The translations under genes and the position numbers were made by a program. DNA of 64,000 nucleotides from a virus, in IMG/VR virus record IMGVR_UViG_3300043493_000021, positions 79 to 64,078 of that record. One strand, written 5' to 3'. Positions 36,041-55,008 of the stretch are shown piece by piece; position 1 is the first letter of the stretch; each line of letters starts with the position of its first letter. Under the pieces are notes generated by a model. It was not told the DNA's origin. It did no database searches and saw nothing but the letters and a program-made list of their open reading frames with translations.

Positions 36041-37750
36041 CTATGTCCGGGCTATCGCGTAAGGCACGCCCATCGGCTTCCGATACCGTTTACGCTCCAA
36101 CTCCTGCATCTCAAATTCTATCTTCCGCAAGACCACGCCGTTCTTCCTGATCCAGCCCAAACCCATCGACATGCAATCCACGTAATCGTCATGCGCCCCA
36201 TACGGAAAAGACGCGCACTCATCGATCACATCCTGAGCCCAGTCCTTGTCCGGCGCATGGACCACACCCCCATCCCACGTCTCGATCCCGGTCGCCGCGT
36301 CCTTCCGGTAATCCCCTGAAAACAAACCCTCGACCGCCTTCAACCGAGCCACCTTCGACGTCTCGACCTTCACCAAAACCGTGATCCACGCTCCGTCCTG
36401 ATAGATCCGGCAGATCTCGTCATGCACGTCCCGGCCCCGCGTTCGGTGCTCGATCAAAAGGTAATCCGCCTTCCGCCGACGGCACGTCACCGCCACCCTT
36501 TCGACCAGTTCCGCCAACGGCAACCGAGCCCGCCACGCCTCCAAAAGCAAAACCAGCGGCTCACCTTCCTCCCCGGCGAACGCGCCCAAGACCACGCACG
36601 CATTGTAATCGTTCTGAGTGCCCTCCTCGACCGCCGTGTCCAGAATAACGAGCACGGTCCCCAGTTCCGGGTAATCATCCCGTTGCCACAACCGCCACCA
36701 GTCCTTCCGAATGATCGAACCACCCCTCACCCCAGGGATCTGATTGTATTGCGAATCCCACGCATACTGGCCCTTTTCAGCCTGAAGAGCCCGCACCAGA
36801 TCGGGCGGAAATCTCTCAGGCCAGCACAACGTCCCCTCCGCCTTCGCCATCAAAGACCCTGGTAAAACCCTCGGCTCGCCCCGCGCATTCGTCGTCAGTC
36901 CCGCCAGCAACGTCCCATCCGGACCCAGAGCACGAGGGTCCGTCCAAACCTGATCAGCCTCCCCATCCTCGTTCCGCCGCATGACCACCCGAGAAATCCG
37001 TAACGGATCAAATTCCATTGGTATCGAGATAAACTCGTAGCCCTGGCCATACTTAATAAGCGTGCCAGTAGCGTCATCTTCATGCGTGCGTTGCTGAAGA
37101 TTGATGACCACGCTCTTCCCCAGATCGTTCAGCCGATCCGGCATGATCTCCCGAACCCACTTGTTCGTCGAACCGCGAACATCGTCCGACTCAACATTAT
37201 TTGGATTATTAAGATCGTCACAAAGGATGCGATCACCGCGCCAACCAGTAGTGCCGCCACCAGTAGAAGTAACCCGCTTCCAGCCCGTTTTAGCGTTCTC
37301 AACGACCTCACTCCCCTCCCGCGTCAGCTTCACCCGGTCACCCCAGCACAAACGATAAACCGGATCATTCACGATCCGGGCGAATCGGATGTTGTCCCGC
37401 TCCGGAATGCCCGTCGAATACGACGCACTCAAATACCGGAGCCAAGGCATGTTCTGAGGACCCCACTCCCACGCGGGCCACAAACAATTCAGCAACGAAG
37501 ACTTCATAGACCCAGGCACCACATTAATGTTCACCCGGTTCAAATGACCGTCCGTCACCGCCATCAAAACATCGCACAAGCAGTCTAAAACCCAGCCCTC
37601 AATTAGCTTTTTTTCCGGCTCCAGCACCCGCCAAAACATCCGGACAAACGACAACAAATCGTCCTCCGCGTCCTTCGCCATCGCCAGGATCTTCCGACGA
37701 CGAACCAGTTCAGCCTTCGCCGCCTCCCGAACCGCCTCGCTCGCCGACAT
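36041..37750 (-). CDS. terL: Terminase large subunit
   Basis: NINVVPGSMKS (Walker A), G.RGDRILCDD (Walker B), QQRTHEDD, W.SQY.Q.P, DTA, FPYGAHDDYVD nuclease end. Start taken at ATG 37750. Confidence 0.92.
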   Translation of the reverse strand: MSASEAVREAAKAELVRRRKILAMAKDAEDDLLSFVRMFWRVLEPEKKLIEGWVLDCLCDVLMAVTDGHLNRVNINVVPGSMKSSLLNCLWPAWEWGPQNMPWLRYLSASYSTGIPERDNIRFARIVNDPVYRLCWGDRVKLTREGSEVVENAKTGWKRVTSTGGGTTGWRGDRILCDDLNNPNNVESDDVRGSTNKWVREIMPDRLNDLGKSVVINLQQRTHEDDATGTLIKYGQGYEFISIPMEFDPLRISRVVMRRNEDGEADQVWTDPRALGPDGTLLAGLTTNARGEPRVLPGSLMAKAEGTLCWPERFPPDLVRALQAEKGQYAWDSQYNQIPGVRGGSIIRKDWWRLWQRDDYPELGTVLVILDTAVEEGTQNDYNACVVLGAFAGEEGEPLVLLLEAWRARLPLAELVERVAVTCRRRKADYLLIEHRTRGRDVHDEICRIYQDGAWITVLVKVETSKVARLKAVEGLFSGDYRKDAATGIETWDGGVVHAPDKDWAQDVIDECASFPYGAHDDYVDCMSMGLGWIRKNGVVLRKIEFEMQELERKRYRKPMGVPYAIART

Positions 37751-37992
37751 CAGATCGATCCCCCGTTGGGTTCCTGAAATTCCGGGTGATCCTCCTTGAA
37801 CCGCTCCCACGAAGGGCACCCATAGCCGACATCACCCGCGCAATCGGACGCCGGGGCCGCACCACATATCGGGCACGGCTCGAAATCCCAGATCGGCTCG
37901 GCCCTCGTTTCAGTCGGGTCCATCGTTCCAGCCCAGCCTTCCAGCTTTCATTGCCAGCTTTCTACCTCGAAGGCTGAAAGAAAGCTGACACG

Positions 37993-41731: not shown

Positions 41732-42568
41732 ATGAGAGTTTCGACGTTGCGACCGGGCTTGCTCGTGTCGCTTTCGACCACCATCAAAGGCAACGTGAGC
41801 TATCGCGTAACCGAAATCGAAGCCGAGCACTTTACCGGCGACGGAACGAAGCGGGCGCGCTGGGAGACGGACAAGCTCATACTTGAGCCAGCCGAGCACG
41901 AGGAAGCCGTGAAGCTTCGCGGCAAGGCGCGGTCCTTGGTGACGGCGGTTTGTTCCGCGTCATCGTTCGGGTTGCTTTGCCCGGAAAGCTCACGGGAAGC
42001 GCTCAACGCGGCGGTGATGGAAGCTCAGGCGATTGCCGACGCTTTCAATTCGCGGGCGAGCGTTACCCGGATGGCGGTGCATGTCATCGTCGGCAAGATT
42101 GGCGACGACGACGCGCAAGCGGTTCGCGCGATCAATGCCGAGGTGCGCGGGCTCATGGAGGCGATGGACCAGGGCTTGCGGAAGCTGGACGTGGCGGCGG
42201 TGCGCGATGCCGCCAACCGGGCTCGCGAGCTTAGCGCGATGCTCACGCCGGAAGCGGCTGGACGGGCTCAGGCGGCGATTGACGCCGCGAGGAGCGCCGC
42301 ACGCCGGATCGTGAAGGCCGGGGAAGAAGCGGCCATCGAAATCGACGCGGCGACGCTCCGGGTTATCCGGGAAGGGCGGGCGGCGTTCCTTGACCTTGAA
42401 GAGGCCGCGCCGATTGCGGACTCGGTGGTCACTGGGCGGGCGCTGGACCTGGACCCTGGGGTGCAGGTTGAGGCGGGCGGCACGGTGGCGGCGACCATTG
42501 ACCTTGACGACGCGCCGCTTGTGCTGAGGGAGGCGGGACCGGTTGCTCAGTTCGGGTTCGAACTGTGA
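41732..42568 (+). CDS. Hypothetical alpha-helical protein (AAA+ cassette partner 1)
   Basis: ATG 41732 after GGAG..AAGAG; 278 aa. Confidence 0.65.
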   Translation: MRVSTLRPGLLVSLSTTIKGNVSYRVTEIEAEHFTGDGTKRARWETDKLILEPAEHEEAVKLRGKARSLVTAVCSASSFGLLCPESSREALNAAVMEAQAIADAFNSRASVTRMAVHVIVGKIGDDDAQAVRAINAEVRGLMEAMDQGLRKLDVAAVRDAANRARELSAMLTPEAAGRAQAAIDAARSAARRIVKAGEEAAIEIDAATLRVIREGRAAFLDLEEAAPIADSVVTGRALDLDPGVQVEAGGTVAATIDLDDAPLVLREAGPVAQFGFEL

Positions 42569-48409: not shown

Positions 48410-48595
48410 TCATCGGACCCTGACCCCCGTGAGCGGGAGCAAATAGCTGATCAGCACGATCACCACGACCAGCGCGAGAAGAACCTGGATCACCCAGACG
48501 GGGAAGCCTGGGGGGAACGGGATCAGCGTGATCACCCACCAGATAAGCGCGCAAATAATCAGAACGACCAGCAAAGTGACGAGAAGATCGATCAT
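48410..48595 (-). CDS. Small two-TM membrane protein (Thivi_2564-like)
   Basis: MIDLLVTLLVVLIICALIWWVITLIPFPPGFPVWVIQVLLALVVVIVLISYLL; RBS GGAGG. Confidence 0.6.
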   Translation of the reverse strand: MIDLLVTLLVVLIICALIWWVITLIPFPPGFPVWVIQVLLALVVVIVLISYLLPLTGVRVR

Positions 48596-48733
48596 GGCTT
48601 GTCCTCCATGTCCCACACCTTAACGAAAGAAACCCCCGGCCACGAGGACCGGGGGAAGTTTGTGTGTGGGGGTAGTCACGGGATACGCCCGCCACGACCG
48701 GCCCCGAACGAGGGAAAGGGACCGATGAACTGG

Positions 48734-48820
48734 TCAGCCCCACGCCATCCAAAGCGTGAAGCCGACCACCGCCCAGAAGACCAGCACGAGTGCCGCCAAC
48801 CGGGCGAAACCTTCAGGCAC
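48734..48820 (-). CDS. 28-aa hydrophobic micro-protein
   Basis: GTG 48820 overlaps the end of the PEP-CTERM gene: MPEGFARLAALVLVFWAVVGFTLWMAWG. Confidence 0.35.
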   Translation of the reverse strand: MPEGFARLAALVLVFWAVVGFTLWMAWG

Positions 48821-49448
48821 GGCGGCGCTTCGCGGCCCCCAGGCCCAGCAATCCCATACCCAGGAGCGCCATGGACGCCGGTTCCGGCACGTCCACGTCG
48901 ACCGGGTTTACCCCGCATCCAGGGCAATCACTGAACAACGTGCGCGCGATGGTGTAGTGCGATACCCCGTGCGTCGTGGAGCCGCCCGGCAGATCAAACG
49001 GCGGATCGGTGAACGGCGATGACCACACGCCATTCGTGAACAACTCGTTGAAAACGAACCCAACGAGGTTGGTGCCGTCGCCGTCTTTGAAGAAGATCCC
49101 GTAAGCGTAGTGGACGAAATCCGCGTTCAGGATCGACCACGTTCCGGTCAGCGCGCTCCCTCCGTTGATCTGTGTCTGACCGTTATCAACCCAGTGGGTA
49201 TCTCCGAAGAACCCCGTCGTGTTCAGGTTCGAAATGGACGCAACGAAGCTATTGTTCGGCGGGTCGATGTATTGACACTTGATCGTCGCGGAAAGCGTCC
49301 CCGCCGCGTTCTCGACCTTCGCGTTGGGCTCGGTGGTGAAGCCCGGTTCGGGACACGTCACCAGGGCGGCGCGGGCCGGAGTCGGAGCCTGGGCGACGGC
49401 GATGACACCCAGAACTCCGACCGTGGCCGCGATAAGTTGGGCCTTCAC
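48813..49448 (-). CDS. PEP-CTERM sorting-domain protein 2
   Basis: GTG 49448 (GTGA overlap): signal peptide MKAQLIAATVGVLGVIAVAQA; C-terminus VDVPEPASMALLGMGLLGLGAAKRRRA*. Confidence 0.9.
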   Translation of the reverse strand: MKAQLIAATVGVLGVIAVAQAPTPARAALVTCPEPGFTTEPNAKVENAAGTLSATIKCQYIDPPNNSFVASISNLNTTGFFGDTHWVDNGQTQINGGSALTGTWSILNADFVHYAYGIFFKDGDGTNLVGFVFNELFTNGVWSSPFTDPPFDLPGGSTTHGVSHYTIARTLFSDCPGCGVNPVDVDVPEPASMALLGMGLLGLGAAKRRRA

Positions 49449-50107
49449 GCGGCGCACCCCGCGACGCTACCACGCCGACGGCGGGCAACGCCAAGACCGA
49501 TCAGACCGGCACCCAGGAGGGCGAGGGAGGCCGGTTCCGGAGCCGCCGTGGACGCCGACACGGTGCCCGAGAAGTCAGCCGTGAAGGCCCCGAGCGTGGT
49601 CCCGTTGATGTGGAGACCCGGCGTCAGGTTCGCGAACGTCAGACCGAACGTCGACGGGGACACGAGATCGGCGGCGTCGATCACGGAGGAAGTCAGAACC
49701 AGCGTGTCGGGCGGCGAGTTCACGTTCAGCGTCAGACCCGGTCCGCCCGCCGCGCCAAACGTGGCGTCCGTGAACGTCCCCGAGAGGTAGTTGGTGCCGG
49801 TGCAACCGTTCAGGCTCGTGAAGCAAAACGACCCGCTATAAAGCTGGATGATCTGCGTCCCGATCTGGGTGGCGGGCGAGGCATTGGTGGCGTTCAGCGA
49901 GAACAAGCTGGTTCCCAGGATAGCGCCGTTACCGGCGGTGATCTGAGTCGAGATGTTGGTGGCGGTGATGTTGGTCGTGGTGCCGTCATCGGTCGCGATG
50001 ATAGTCGGCGTGTCGCTCTGGTTTTGCGAGAACGAGGCGACGAGGGCGGCGTCAGCGGAGGTAGCGATGGCTACCAGGGCCGTTGCCGCGAGGAGAAGGT
50101 TTCGCAT
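49445..50107 (-). CDS. PEP-CTERM sorting-domain protein 1
   Basis: ATG 50107 with AAAGGG RBS: signal peptide MRNLLLAATALVAIATSADA; Ser/Thr-rich body; C-terminus APEPASLALLGAGLIGLGVARRRR. Confidence 0.9.
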   Translation of the reverse strand: MRNLLLAATALVAIATSADAALVASFSQNQSDTPTIIATDDGTTTNITATNISTQITAGNGAILGTSLFSLNATNASPATQIGTQIIQLYSGSFCFTSLNGCTGTNYLSGTFTDATFGAAGGPGLTLNVNSPPDTLVLTSSVIDAADLVSPSTFGLTFANLTPGLHINGTTLGAFTADFSGTVSASTAAPEPASLALLGAGLIGLGVARRRRGSVAGCAA

Positions 50108-50274
50108 GAGTTTCCCTTTGTTGGGTTCGGTTGTCGGTCCGAGAAAGTTAACCAAACCTTCAGGATCTGTCCTGGCCAATCGTCGCGGACATATTCTTGG
50201 GACGCGGCAATAAACTCAGTGGTTTATCGGTCGAAAGTCGGGATCTGGGCCGGGACTGTAAATTCCGCCGACAC

Positions 50275-50448
50275 TCACCAGAACCCGTTCGATGTCTGAT
50301 AGAACTGGGATTGGGCCGGTCCCGTGATCGGTGCCAGGAGCGCTTTCACGGTTTCCCGGAGTTCATCGTTGTGCCGTCGCAAGTCAGCGACCTCCCGCTC
50401 CAGGTCGTCAACGCGGCGTCTCAGTTGGTCCAGTAGGTAGTCTTGCAT
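50275..50448 (-). CDS. Small coiled-coil protein
   Basis: LRRRVDDLEREVADLRRHNDELRETV. Confidence 0.45.
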   Translation of the reverse strand: MQDYLLDQLRRRVDDLEREVADLRRHNDELRETVKALLAPITGPAQSQFYQTSNGFW

Positions 50449-52083: not shown

Positions 52084-52307
52084 TCCGTCGGAAGTGGGAC
52101 GCCTCGGGCTTCTCCCCGCACGGCGTGGTCCGGTAGCTTGGTGGATTCCAATGCCTCTCGCAGCGTGATATAGGATTCGACCATGGGAGTCTGGTGCCAC
52201 AGATGACGGAATCGGCGCAATCGGCATCTTCTGGTGGCGATTATCCGCGTCTGGATATCGCAAAGCACCCAGAACACGACGTCGTGGATGATCTCGCGGT
52301 CAGTCAT
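51963..52307 (-). CDS. Hypothetical protein (C-terminus overlaps the IS remnant)
   Basis: ATGA-coupled to the rep gene. Confidence 0.35.
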   Translation of the reverse strand: MTDREIIHDVVFWVLCDIQTRIIATRRCRLRRFRHLWHQTPMVESYITLREALESTKLPDHAVRGEARGVPLPTDQAKIACRASQSSTTVTISATSQSVLDTPAAMAGEHFSVE

Positions 52308-53623
52308 CGCGATCTCCCGTTGGTTCTCATGGCCGCTTCACGGACCGGTTTCTCGAAGTAAGCCAAGCTGCTCGGGGGTGCGTATTCGCTCCATTCGGCA
52401 CGCCGTTTGATCCCGGCCAGGATCATCTCCGAGTCGATGCCGTCTCGGAGCCAGGAACCCAACGGAGTCCACGATCCCCTCCAGGTCGGAGGCAAACCAG
52501 CGATCTCCGCGATCGTGGTTGCCAGACCCACCGCATCGAACCCGGCGATGCTCGCCACTTTCACCCCATCGCCGACCGTTCCCACCTCGGTTGGTTCCGT
52601 CGCGACCCAGGCGTTGATGCCCCAGGGGTCCAGAAGATCCGGTTCCCGCCCGTTGCCGCCCTTGGCCCCAGCGGTGAGCCACGCCATGGGGTCGCTCGGT
52701 TGCTCGCTTTCCGCTCGTCGAAGGAGCCCGAGAAGCCGCTCGTGGTCGGCGTGCGCCGCGTCGATCAGCTTGCCCAGGAGCTTGCGGGTTGGTCCCTCCG
52801 GTTTCCCGGTGAGCCGGACGAGGATCGCCAGACCCTCTCGCCAGAGGGCGGTCTTCGCGTCCGGCGGCGTCGGCTCGACGCCCTCCCGAAGGGAGGAGTC
52901 TTTCTTCTTGCTTCTTTCTTCTGGAGTAGGCGTTTTTGGGCGTTCGACGCCATCAGATGGTAGGCGTTCGACGCCTAGGGTATTAAGCATTTGACGCCAT
53001 GTATCCGGTCTATAATCCGTCCGGTCCGGACCCTTTGATGCGTTACACCTCTGACAAAAAGGCTGGATGTTTTCGATCGCATCGCTCCCGCCCTGGTAGA
53101 TTGGAGTGATGTGATCTTTCACGGGACCGCCGTTTCCCTGGAACGGTTTTTGGCATCTCATGCACATTCCATTGGCCAAATTGAGTAAGGCGACCCACTC
53201 AAGATCTGTGTGTGTCCCCTTGCGGCGCGCTTCGCTAAGTCGAGAAGAGCGGCTGATTCCTTCGGATTTTCCGGAACCCCACCTCTTTTTGATCGCCACC
53301 GCGCCGTCGCCGGAAGCCAGGTCATCGCGAACCATTCGCCTCGAAAATATTATCCCATCATCGTTTTTGCTAAACACCCCGGCGTCTCCCAGTTCAGTCA
53401 GAAGACGGGTAGCTTCCTTCTCTCCAATGCCGGTCATTTTGCTGATCTGAGTTACCGTCGCCGCTCGTCCGTTAATGGTGACGTGCCCGTAAGGCGTTCC
53501 TTCGTGGGCGAGGCAAAGAAGCTCCATCCACAAACCCCGAGCGGCGAGGCCGCACGACCTCAGTCCCGGATCTCGTTGCCAGTCCTGTGGCCAGAATTTT
53601 ATCCAGGATCGGTTCGCGGTCAT
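52304..53623 (-). CDS. Phage replication initiator (N-terminal wHTH) with internal HNH domain
   Basis: WIKFWPQDWQ.DP.L..C...ARGLW.ELLC...G.L...GVFS...G.I.SRRM (rep HTH); CMRC...KDHITPIYQGGSDAIENIQPFCQRCNASKG (HNH, ~53030-53230). Coupled to dnaB. Confidence 0.75.
   Translation of the reverse strand: MTANRSWIKFWPQDWQRDPGLRSCGLAARGLWMELLCLAHEGTPYGHVTINGRAATVTQISKMTGIGEKEATRLLTELGDAGVFSKNDDGIIFSRRMVRDDLASGDGAVAIKKRWGSGKSEGISRSSRLSEARRKGTHTDLEWVALLNLANGMCMRCQKPFQGNGGPVKDHITPIYQGGSDAIENIQPFCQRCNASKGPDRTDYRPDTWRQMLNTLGVERLPSDGVERPKTPTPEERSKKKDSSLREGVEPTPPDAKTALWREGLAILVRLTGKPEGPTRKLLGKLIDAAHADHERLLGLLRRAESEQPSDPMAWLTAGAKGGNGREPDLLDPWGINAWVATEPTEVGTVGDGVKVASIAGFDAVGLATTIAEIAGLPPTWRGSWTPLGSWLRDGIDSEMILAGIKRRAEWSEYAPPSSLAYFEKPVREAAMRTNGRSR
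52926..52978. repeat. Clustered palindromic repeats, candidate origin iterons
   Basis: GGCGTTCGACGCC at 52939-52951 and 52963-52975 (second copy within the perfect IR TAGGCGT-TCG-ACGCCTA), TAGGCGT at 52927, and CCATCAGATGG between. Confidence 0.45.
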
Positions 53624-55008
53624 TGCGCGTCGCTCCCGGAGAAGGTGGTTGTCGCACCATCGAAGCGGAGCCGGTCAGTGCCCGACTCCCCATCTCGGAC
53701 CTTGCCCCAGATGACCTCGGCGACACCCGCGAGTCGTTTCTTTTCAGTGGCCCAAACGGTGCAACGGTTGGCGTAGATTTCGTTGGTTTCTTTGGATTGC
53801 CGCTCAGGCTCATTACTCAGATAGTATTCTGGTCGGTAGACGAAGCCGACGGCGTCGGCGTCTTGCTCGATATCCCCGGCCTGACGGAGATCCCCGAGCC
53901 CAGGTCGCTTGTCCTCGCGCCCTTCCACGCCCCGGTTGAGTTGCGCGGCGACCAGGACCGGCACCTCGCAATCCTTGGCGAGACGCTTCATCGCACCGCT
54001 GATCCGGCCCATGGCCCAGGTCGGCCCTTGCTTCGCGTCGCTCTCCTCGGGCCGCACGATATGGAGGTGATCGACCACGACCAGACCCAGACCGTTGCGC
54101 CGCGCCGCGCGTGCTCGTGCGGCTATCTGGCGGACGGTGAGACCCGCGCCGTCGTCTATGGTGAGCGGAAGATCGCCAAGCTCCCTCCGCGCCGTGACAA
54201 TTCGCGCGGCCTGGTCGAGATCGACGGTGCCATACTTCATCGCCTTGATCGGCACGCCCGCCGCCGTCGAAAGCACCCGTCGCCCGAGTTCACGCGCGGA
54301 CATCTCCAGCGAGATCATCAGCACACCCGCGCCATTGCGCGCCGCGTTGATGCCCCACTGGAGCGCGAGCGCGGACTTGCCCATGGCGGGCCGCCCGGCG
54401 ATCACGGTCAGCGTTCCTGGCTCCAGCCCACCGATCCGGTAGTCGATGTCGCGGAAGCCGGTGGAGAGCCCGGTCGGGCCGTTCTGGCCTCGGGCGATAT
54501 CGATGGCGGCTATCGCGTCATCCAGGGCCGCGCTCAATTTGACGGAACGCCCGTCCGATTTAGCGCCCGTGATGACGTCGATCCTCGCCAAAGCGCTGGA
54601 TAAGGCGGTAGGCACGGGATCACCCGCGAACATCTGGGTCACCAGCCCTTGGCAAATGTCGATCAGTTCGCGACGCGCCGCGCACTCCGCGATCACGCCC
54701 GCCAGTTCCGGCACCTGGATCAGGCCGACCATCGAAGCCAGCACATTCGAGAGGAGTTCGTTATCAAATTCATGCTTCAGGGAAACGGCGGAGACGTTTC
54801 GTCCCGCGTCTATCCGTTCGGTGATGCGGGCGAAGAGCCGCCCATACTCGCTATCATAGAATTGTTCCGGTTTGAGATCCTCGCAACGGTCCCGACACGC
54901 ATTCTGGTGCAACAACGCTCCCAGCAAGGCTTGCTCGGCCTGGGTATTATACGGGGGAGCGCGGAGCGATAAGCCAGGGAATAGCGGCTCTGAGCCATCT
55001 GGCATCAC
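53620..55008 (-). CDS. dnaB: Replicative DNA helicase, DnaB-like
   Basis: PPYNTQAEQALLGALL, GLSTGF..ID...GG...G.L.VIAGRPAMGKS, ISLEMS, VVDHLH, AAQLNR.VE.R.DKRP.L.DLR.AG.IEQDAD, KVRDG..G. Confidence 0.93.
   Translation of the reverse strand: MMPDGSEPLFPGLSLRAPPYNTQAEQALLGALLHQNACRDRCEDLKPEQFYDSEYGRLFARITERIDAGRNVSAVSLKHEFDNELLSNVLASMVGLIQVPELAGVIAECAARRELIDICQGLVTQMFAGDPVPTALSSALARIDVITGAKSDGRSVKLSAALDDAIAAIDIARGQNGPTGLSTGFRDIDYRIGGLEPGTLTVIAGRPAMGKSALALQWGINAARNGAGVLMISLEMSARELGRRVLSTAAGVPIKAMKYGTVDLDQAARIVTARRELGDLPLTIDDGAGLTVRQIAARARAARRNGLGLVVVDHLHIVRPEESDAKQGPTWAMGRISGAMKRLAKDCEVPVLVAAQLNRGVEGREDKRPGLGDLRQAGDIEQDADAVGFVYRPEYYLSNEPERQSKETNEIYANRCTVWATEKKRLAGVAEVIWGKVRDGESGTDRLRFDGATTTFSGSDAQ

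Follow-up and report, generated by a model that had tools for sequence, protein, structure and literature searches.

A mobile phage cassette encoding two PEP-CTERM proteins in the absence of a phage exosortase

Can a phage exploit a protein-sorting pathway of which it encodes substrates and no enzyme? Sorting by the PEP-CTERM/exosortase system is widespread in bacteria of soil, sludge and biofilms; a role is known for few of its substrates, and it is not clear what becomes of the protein after cleavage. The question is raised by a 64,000-nt stretch of DNA (hereafter the window; bases 79–64078 of the 70,216-bp IMG/VR virus record IMGVR_UViG_3300043493_000021), which belongs to an uncultured soil phage of ~70 kb and carries two adjacent genes, A and B, whose products both end in a PEP-CTERM sorting signal. 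We found that these genes form a self-contained, horizontally mobile accessory cassette, which consists of a leader, gene A, the translationally coupled gene B and a terminator. We consider it reasonably likely that the products of this cassette are exported, processed by an exosortase of the host and used to re-decorate the envelope or slime of the infected cell, with an effect on phage adsorption.

The initial annotation of this locus described two genes coupled by a GTGA overlap, each with a signal peptide and a full PEP-CTERM tail. This is what the two minus-strand open reading frames (ORFs) present (Table 1): the TGA stop codon of gene A overlaps the GTG of gene B (49448) by 4 nt. Gene B can also be read from a second in-frame GTG at 49457 (P0001), but GTG 49448 is the likely start, because the N-terminus then matches that of relatives in length and because the 4-nt overlap is kept in relatives from other phage contigs (10001/10004 in L004, 1666/1669 in L100 and 8666/8669 in L158). 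Signal peptides were called by inspection (basic n-region, hydrophobic core and AxA site) and from the helices that the AlphaFold2 models place at the N-terminus. The N-terminus of gene A (MRNLLLAATALVAIATSADA) has a predicted cleavage site before ALV, and that of gene B (M(V)KAQLIAATVGVLGVIAVAQAPTPARA) has one before A. These regions are conserved in the alignments of both families of homologues (hereafter families A and B), and by inspection both products have the signal peptide that characterizes PEP-CTERM proteins.

The mature part of each protein is ~165 residues long, and the two parts proved unrelated to each other, as had been proposed: the similarity between A and B is confined to the tail, where BLASTP found 18 of 23 residues identical and hhalign aligned 31 columns, none of them in the mature parts. 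The cysteine pairs reported for the product of gene B are also present (C35 and C61, invariant in 16 aligned relatives, and a CPGC motif at residues 183–186 that is found in the phage clade only). They do not, however, distinguish it from the product of gene A, which has the invariant cysteines C95 and C102 (22 aligned relatives). After its Arg cluster, gene A carries eight further residues (GSVAGCAA) whose codons overlap the ribosome-binding site and start codon of gene B. In other phages, the first gene of a tandem pair is extended in a similar way and single genes stop directly after the basic cluster; the extension therefore seems to be there to accommodate these two elements of the coupled gene.

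Both tails score above the cut-offs of the two PEP-CTERM models (gathering score of 20.7 for PF07589 and cut-off of 16 for TIGR02595; scores in Table 1). A six-frame scan of the whole 70-kb record returned exactly two PEP-CTERM matches (E = 6e-10 and 3e-8), which are those of genes A and B. Since nothing else was matched in the record or in 14 control genomes, these two matches are not due to chance. Residues E191 and P192 of gene A are invariant in 22 relatives, residues E192 and P193 of gene B are invariant in 16, and a tail composed of xEP, a hydrophobic segment and basic residues is kept in 70 of 73 viral homologues.

The absence of an exosortase, first noticed in the window, extends well beyond it: PF09721 had no match in the window or in the rest of the 70,216-bp record. 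It had none either in 38 further viral records with a family A gene, including nine with a rated completeness of 90% or more. To our knowledge, exosortase, a host enzyme, is the only enzyme that processes the PEP-CTERM tag. An exosortase encoded in the same genome is a mark of PEP-CTERM proteins; the phage record has none, and the relevant genome here is that of the host. Because the phage encodes no exosortase, the tails could be processed by a host exosortase only. An exosortase is encoded in all five of the cellular genomes with a family B homologue that were checked and, in Noviherbaspirillum, it lies ~10 kb from the homologue.

The two phage products share with bacterial substrates of exosortases (EpsH, XrtA; Haft et al. 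2006, PMC1569441) a signal peptide, a small Ser/Thr/Gly-rich beta domain and, at the extreme C-terminus, a tail made of a PEP motif, a hydrophobic helix and an Arg cluster. In contrast to these substrates, they are encoded by a phage without an exosortase in its record and without an exopolysaccharide (EPS) locus, and their ends stay constant while the cargo domains in between can be exchanged. Zoogloea and Aquincola have floc-forming PepA proteins, which are also PEP-CTERM substrates (PMC9850573). The Aquincola PepA gene is RpoN-dependent according to the title of that study, whereas no RpoN-type promoter was found at the cassette. When whole proteins were scored against the floc_PepA model (NF033554, an equivalog), gene A obtained 42.0 bits (a weak full-length match over residues 22–212) and gene B obtained 26.9 bits. 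Both scores are far under the cut-off of 80, and the identification of either protein as PepA was rejected.

The mobility of the cassette is apparent from its presence in other phages. The best homologues of genes A and B (81% and 77–78% identical, respectively) are located on phage contigs with another packaging module (Terminase_6N, Phage_portal_3 and Mu_F) and at other positions. The DNA identity to the cassettes in these unrelated backbones is 74–77% and is confined to window positions ~48670–50274. This span takes in the leader upstream of gene A and the 3' untranslated region, and reaches window position 48669 in L043 and 48740 in L053. The A and B pair, or gene A alone, was found in at least four different backbones, and, of the 73 viral loci fetched for both families, 27 have a terminase, portal, Mu_F, VapE or capsid gene no more than 6 kb away. 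The closest complete relative of the phage (G006; 67.2 kb with direct terminal repeats; 71% identity of the large terminase TerL) has no PEP-CTERM gene. It shares only the structural and packaging module (window 11785–37819 compared with L154–L157; 46–83% amino acid identity), and the entire non-structural arm, at 38–70 kb, is unrelated. The cassette is thus missing from a related genome and present in unrelated backbones, as a moron or accessory element would be.

Related cassettes show an exchange of mature domains, while the signal peptide and the tail that enclose them remain constant. The upstream gene of L004 and L080 has retained its two ends (the signal peptide, and the tail with the extension after the Arg cluster) but has an unrelated mature domain; BLASTP aligned the last 38 residues only (74% identity). 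The downstream gene of L043 and L053 likewise keeps the signal peptide and tail around an unrelated mature domain. At the DNA level, the breakpoints are located inside the codons of the signal peptide and immediately ahead of the PEP motif. All ten alternative cargos present a PEP-CTERM tail (nine above the PF07589 cut-off and one at 20.4 against 20.7) and no other Pfam domain. The constant signal-peptide and tail segments could serve as homology arms for the swapping of mature domains between phages.

Both genes are under purifying selection. The ratio of nonsynonymous to synonymous substitution rates (dN/dS) of the mature domains ranges from 0.14 to 0.24 for homologous pairs, at dS of ~0.9–1.1 (0.20 for gene A relative to its L100 homologue; 0.17–0.24 for gene B relative to L004, L100 and L080). 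The 23–24 codons of the tails yielded dN/dS of 0.03–0.22.

How might such proteins act? According to the reading that we favor, each product would be exported by Sec through its N-terminal signal peptide. The C-terminal helix of the PEP-CTERM signal, together with its Arg cluster, would then retain the product in the inner membrane. A host exosortase of the XrtA/EpsH type would recognize the tail and cleave it at the PEP motif, so that the small beta-rich domains would reach the cell surface or the matrix of exopolysaccharide. In this way the infected cell would have its envelope or slime re-decorated with phage proteins, probably in the course of lytic infection. The initial annotation likewise proposed that the phage uses the host exosortase, with receptor masking or superinfection exclusion, aggregation or EPS remodelling as possible roles. 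By analogy with Llp of phage T5, the most likely benefit would be altered adsorption, through the masking of receptors or matrix against superinfecting phages and against the loss of progeny on cell debris.

Several points weigh against exosortase processing and surface display. The host exosortase is presumed. The C-terminal helix and basic cluster could constitute a simple membrane anchor without processing, and the first Pro of the motif varies in the alignment of family A (T, K, G, A, Y, I or S before EP). Upstream of the cassette, we detected neither a sigma-70 nor a sigma-54 promoter consensus, and the runs that contain the region are all metagenomes, with no RNA run among them. Finally, neither mature domain matches a known fold or function. 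The AlphaFold2 model of gene B presents a beta-sandwich core (predicted local distance difference test, pLDDT, of 83–92), for which Foldseek found no match in PDB at E ≤ 0.001 and the best Z score, in VIA, was 3.7. The model of gene A (pLDDT of 66.8) matched small beta-barrels in PDB at Z scores of ~8, which is the background level. Matches in the AlphaFold database were other small PEP-CTERM proteins. The role of the mature domains is therefore an argument by analogy, and it is by analogy only that the masking of receptors or matrix is suggested.

Part of these points would suit an alternative explanation in which the tails are plain C-terminal anchors in the inner membrane. The products would then be type I membrane proteins that face the periplasm without any contact with an exosortase and that could, for instance, block the entry of superinfecting DNA. 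Imm and Sp of phage T4 block DNA entry of superinfecting phages. A signal peptide combined with a C-terminal helix and a basic cluster fits an anchor too, as do the variable first Pro and the presumed status of the host exosortase. We nevertheless regard this explanation as unlikely: the Glu-Pro pair is invariant in both families, the selection on the tails is stronger than a generic hydrophobic helix needs, the tails pass curated models built on exosortase-linked proteins, and every checked cellular genome with a family B homologue encodes an exosortase. The low dN/dS, the invariant Glu-Pro and the retention of nearly all viral tails argue for a function beyond that of a generic anchor.

Less probable still is that the products are decoy substrates whose strong expression would saturate or jam the host exosortase, halt the sorting of the host's own PEP-CTERM proteins and loosen the floc or EPS for the escape of progeny. 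Two tail-bearing genes in tandem, highly conserved tails next to freely exchangeable cargo and carriers that mostly appear lytic would all be compatible with a decoy. However, a pure decoy needs neither purifying selection on its mature domains (dN/dS of 0.14–0.21) nor invariant Cys pairs. It is very improbable that the cassette represents a selfish or decaying passenger without function for the phage. This would be in line with its absence from the closest complete relative and with mature domains to which no known function can be assigned, but the reading frames are intact, the dN/dS values given above were obtained at dS of ~0.9–1.1, and the 4-nt gene overlap, the leader and the terminator are conserved across backbones.

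A coverage break had been named as the sign by which mis-assembled host DNA would be recognized, and we observed none. The 6-kb region of the cassette is contained in four soil or sediment metagenome runs; two of these are a possible source of this DNA, and in the other two, 0.89 and 0.78 of the words are present. The word depth over 42–58 kb is flat in every one of the four runs. A 13-kb unitig extends from position 42000 into gene B, and a contig of the independent soil run (0.89 of the words) bridges the 3' end of gene B to the downstream phage genes. The GC-content at third codon positions (GC3) is 0.80 for gene A and for gene B, which equals that of the rest of the phage. GC3, flat word depth and the contigs from an independent sample indicate that the cassette does not stem from a mis-assembly of host DNA. 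PEP-CTERM genes are characteristic of cellular genomes, the record is linear with a CheckV completeness of 67%, and Logan unitigs break within both genes (at 49278/49293 and 49741), but host DNA fused to a phage contig by mis-assembly, or a cellular fragment miscalled as viral, is essentially excluded by these data, by the phage genes on both sides, by the same cassette on many other phage contigs (some of them complete with terminal repeats) and by the absence of family A from 185,579 species genomes.

The runs that contain the region point to soil, rhizosphere and sediment as its habitat. When the ends of the contig were joined, the frame at the right end was lengthened, though not in the frame of the left-end ORF. 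Despite its CheckV value, the 70-kb record is probably near complete, because its closest long relative by TerL has 67.2 kb and direct terminal repeats; the CheckV estimate of ~65% for both the present phage and G006 is probably an underestimate for the lineage. At window positions 48827–49369, one low-depth contig of run X2, from the source sample, matches both flanks of the gene B mature domain and skips the 541 nt between them. This contig, which lacks the mature part of gene B between the two tails, may represent a co-occurring variant with swapped cargo in the same population.

The two families differ in their distribution. Family A comprises more than 450 relatives and occurs in 71 IMG/VR contigs, and 91% of its ESM Atlas cluster are viruses. 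We detected no relative of this family in the species genomes mentioned above, which were scanned with two peptide patterns that very divergent relatives could escape. No homologue of A or B was found among GenBank phages (50,697 records). Judged from these searches, family A is almost entirely viral. Family B comprises 79 relatives, among them chromosomal genes of Massilia, Noviherbaspirillum, Sphingosinicella, Falsiroseomonas, Elioraea and a metagenome-assembled genome of Rhodospirillaceae (46–54% identity). The similarity of these chromosomal relatives (L082–L095) to gene B spans the entire mature domain, and they share its invariant Cys pair and its tail. They differ in that the cellular copies sit among housekeeping genes, among other PEP-CTERM genes or near an exosortase, whereas the phage copies have the additional CPGC motif and form one clade of the maximum-likelihood tree (100/99 support), apart from the clades of Oxalobacteraceae and Sphingosinicella. 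The sequence relationships indicate that family B was captured from chromosomal genes of Pseudomonadota; the deeper order of the tree is unresolved and no donor is therefore named.

Expression of the cassette probably takes place in the course of lytic infection, and a part in lysogenic conversion is less likely. We favor lytic expression because no integrase was found in this (possibly incomplete) record, neither a tyrosine integrase nor a serine recombinase; because a tyrosine integrase was present in only two of the 16 long viral records carrying family A; because the relatives of TerL, all metagenomic, never occur on contigs longer than ~70 kb; and because the cassette has the same direction of transcription as the replication genes. 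Carriers of lysogenic-conversion genes are recognized by an integrase or lysogeny functions, which this record does not present, and no prophage was found. The searches for a host returned little: the phage DnaB is only 31–38% identical to the DnaB proteins of 81 Burkholderiales genomes around Massilia, which gives no host signal, and no tRNA genes were found in the phage DNA. Atlas neighbors point weakly to Acidobacteriota for gene A and to Pseudomonadota for gene B, and are leads only.

The surface display that we propose has parallels in other phages. Llp of T5 and Cor of lambdoid phages use the lipoprotein pathway and mask receptors, and SasX of S. aureus is a prophage-borne LPXTG protein of the sortase pathway. 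In all these cases, the phage supplies a cargo with a host address label, and the machinery of the host delivers it to the surface. The present cassette differs from them by the exosortase system that it would use, by the absence of sequence or fold similarity and by its modular two-gene structure. If our reading is true, the cassette would constitute, for the exosortases of Gram-negative bacteria, the equivalent of phage surface cargo that relies on lipoproteins (T5 Llp, Cor) or on sortase. More tentatively, it is possible that phages of exosortase-bearing soil bacteria share a recombination-ready cassette for surface display, in which the leader with the signal peptide and the PEP-CTERM tail are constant homology arms and unrelated cargo is shuffled between them and across lineages. 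Phages that are mostly lytic would thereby possess a diversifying toolkit that rewrites the surface or EPS of the host by means of its exosortase, and the gene A family would have evolved and spread nearly all within viruses.

The initial annotation had not recognized PEP-CTERM proteins as a standard class of phage genes, and our search of the literature on PEP-CTERM and phages agrees with this, as we found no paper that describes such genes as a class of phage cargo. One preprint reports that a virus-like element from Dehalococcoides encodes a protein with a PEP-CTERM domain. Neither the substrates nor the sorting system is new; what the literature searched does not describe is that mostly non-temperate phages carry such substrates in the form of an exchangeable cassette. 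The phage-borne substrates are small, abundant, portable and under selection, and they constitute a natural "domain-swap" series, which makes them convenient probes of what the tail alone specifies and of the final location of the cargo. If these proteins change adsorption, aggregation or matrix, they would offer phages a new route to shape flocs, biofilms and soil aggregates. For phage annotation pipelines, PEP-CTERM matches in viral contigs should no longer count as a sign of host contamination.

Table 1. Features of the PEP-CTERM cassette, of the phage genes around it and of related cassettes. Positions are those of the window unless another record is named.
Feature	Position	Strand	Description
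Gene A (P0002, 220 aa)	49445-50107	-	Signal peptide (residues 1-20), Ser/Thr/Asn/Gly-rich beta domain, PEP-CTERM tail, 8-residue extension
Gene B (211 aa from GTG 49448)	48813-49448	-	Signal peptide, beta-sandwich domain, CPGC motif, PEP-CTERM tail at extreme C-terminus
PEP-CTERM sorting signal of gene A (APEPASLALLGAGLIGLGVARRRR)	49472-49546	-	PF07589, 26.9 bits; TIGR02595, 24.4 bits
PEP-CTERM sorting signal of gene B (VPEPASMALLGMGLLGLGAAKRRRA)	48819-48893	-	PF07589, 32.2 bits; TIGR02595, 23.5 bits
Six-frame match, gene A	G000 49550-49624		Window 49472-49546
Six-frame match, gene B	G000 48900-48971		
Conserved non-coding leader, 167 nt	50108-50274	-	Between 57-aa ORF and gene A; ends in ribosome-binding site AAAGGGAAA
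57-aa coiled-coil ORF (MQDYLLDQLRRRVDDLEREVADLRRHNDELRETVKALL...)	50275-50448	-	Directly upstream of cassette; read from sequence
Intrinsic-terminator-like hairpin and T-run	48623-48655 (hairpin 48633-48655)	-	9 pairs, 8 of them G-C; ~160 nt past gene B stop; closes cassette
TerL	36041-37819		Left of cassette; TerS also on left side
Tail/ejection proteins and virion proteins			Left of cassette
AAA ATPase			Among phage genes flanking cassette
HNH	52304-53623		Right of cassette
DnaB	53620-55008		Right of cassette
RusA and Erf			Right of cassette
Cassette in L004 and L158			After Mu_F
Cassette in L100			Directly in front of Terminase_6N
Cassette in L005-L008 and others			Beside or between terminase and portal
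Tandem PEP-CTERM pair in L099	L099 9326-10630		142-kb phage-like ENA contig

In this phage, the cassette is placed between the terminase genes and the genes for DnaB, HNH, RusA and Erf (Table 1). The surroundings of the related cassettes are diverse. In six IMG/VR records (L020, L035, L036, L040, L057 and L065; phages of ~42–53 kb or fragments), a gene of the A family lies between the large terminase and portal genes, which is an unusual accessory slot. The pair of L099 lies near an Acb2/Tad1-like anti-CBASS gene, a TnpB-like gene and a Phage_stabilise gene. Just downstream of the cassette, the Terminase_6N-type carriers L004 (12240–17285) and L158 (10945–16275) encode 1,700-aa proteins that match Pa193_gp24, NUDIX and an ADP-ribosylating exotoxin-like domain (PF03496).

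Morons carry their own terminator and promoter; at the present cassette we observed a strong terminator-like hairpin and the conserved 167-nt leader, but neither a sigma-70 nor a sigma-54 consensus. A profile of this leader (nhmmer) matched window positions 50105–50274, L158, L004 and L080 (E-values of 1e-35 to 1e-42) and part of L053. The leader may represent a promoter/operator or an RNA element. Its four to five copies are too few for covariation, and no RNA structure is claimed; no Rfam family was found near the cassette. The coding sequence of the 57-aa coiled-coil ORF aligns with the stretch upstream of gene-A-like genes in four other phage contigs (L080, L053, L158 and L029), which suggests that this ORF may travel with the cassette. 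Just past the terminator, a minus-strand gene (48410–48616) encodes a 68-aa protein with two predicted hydrophobic helices.

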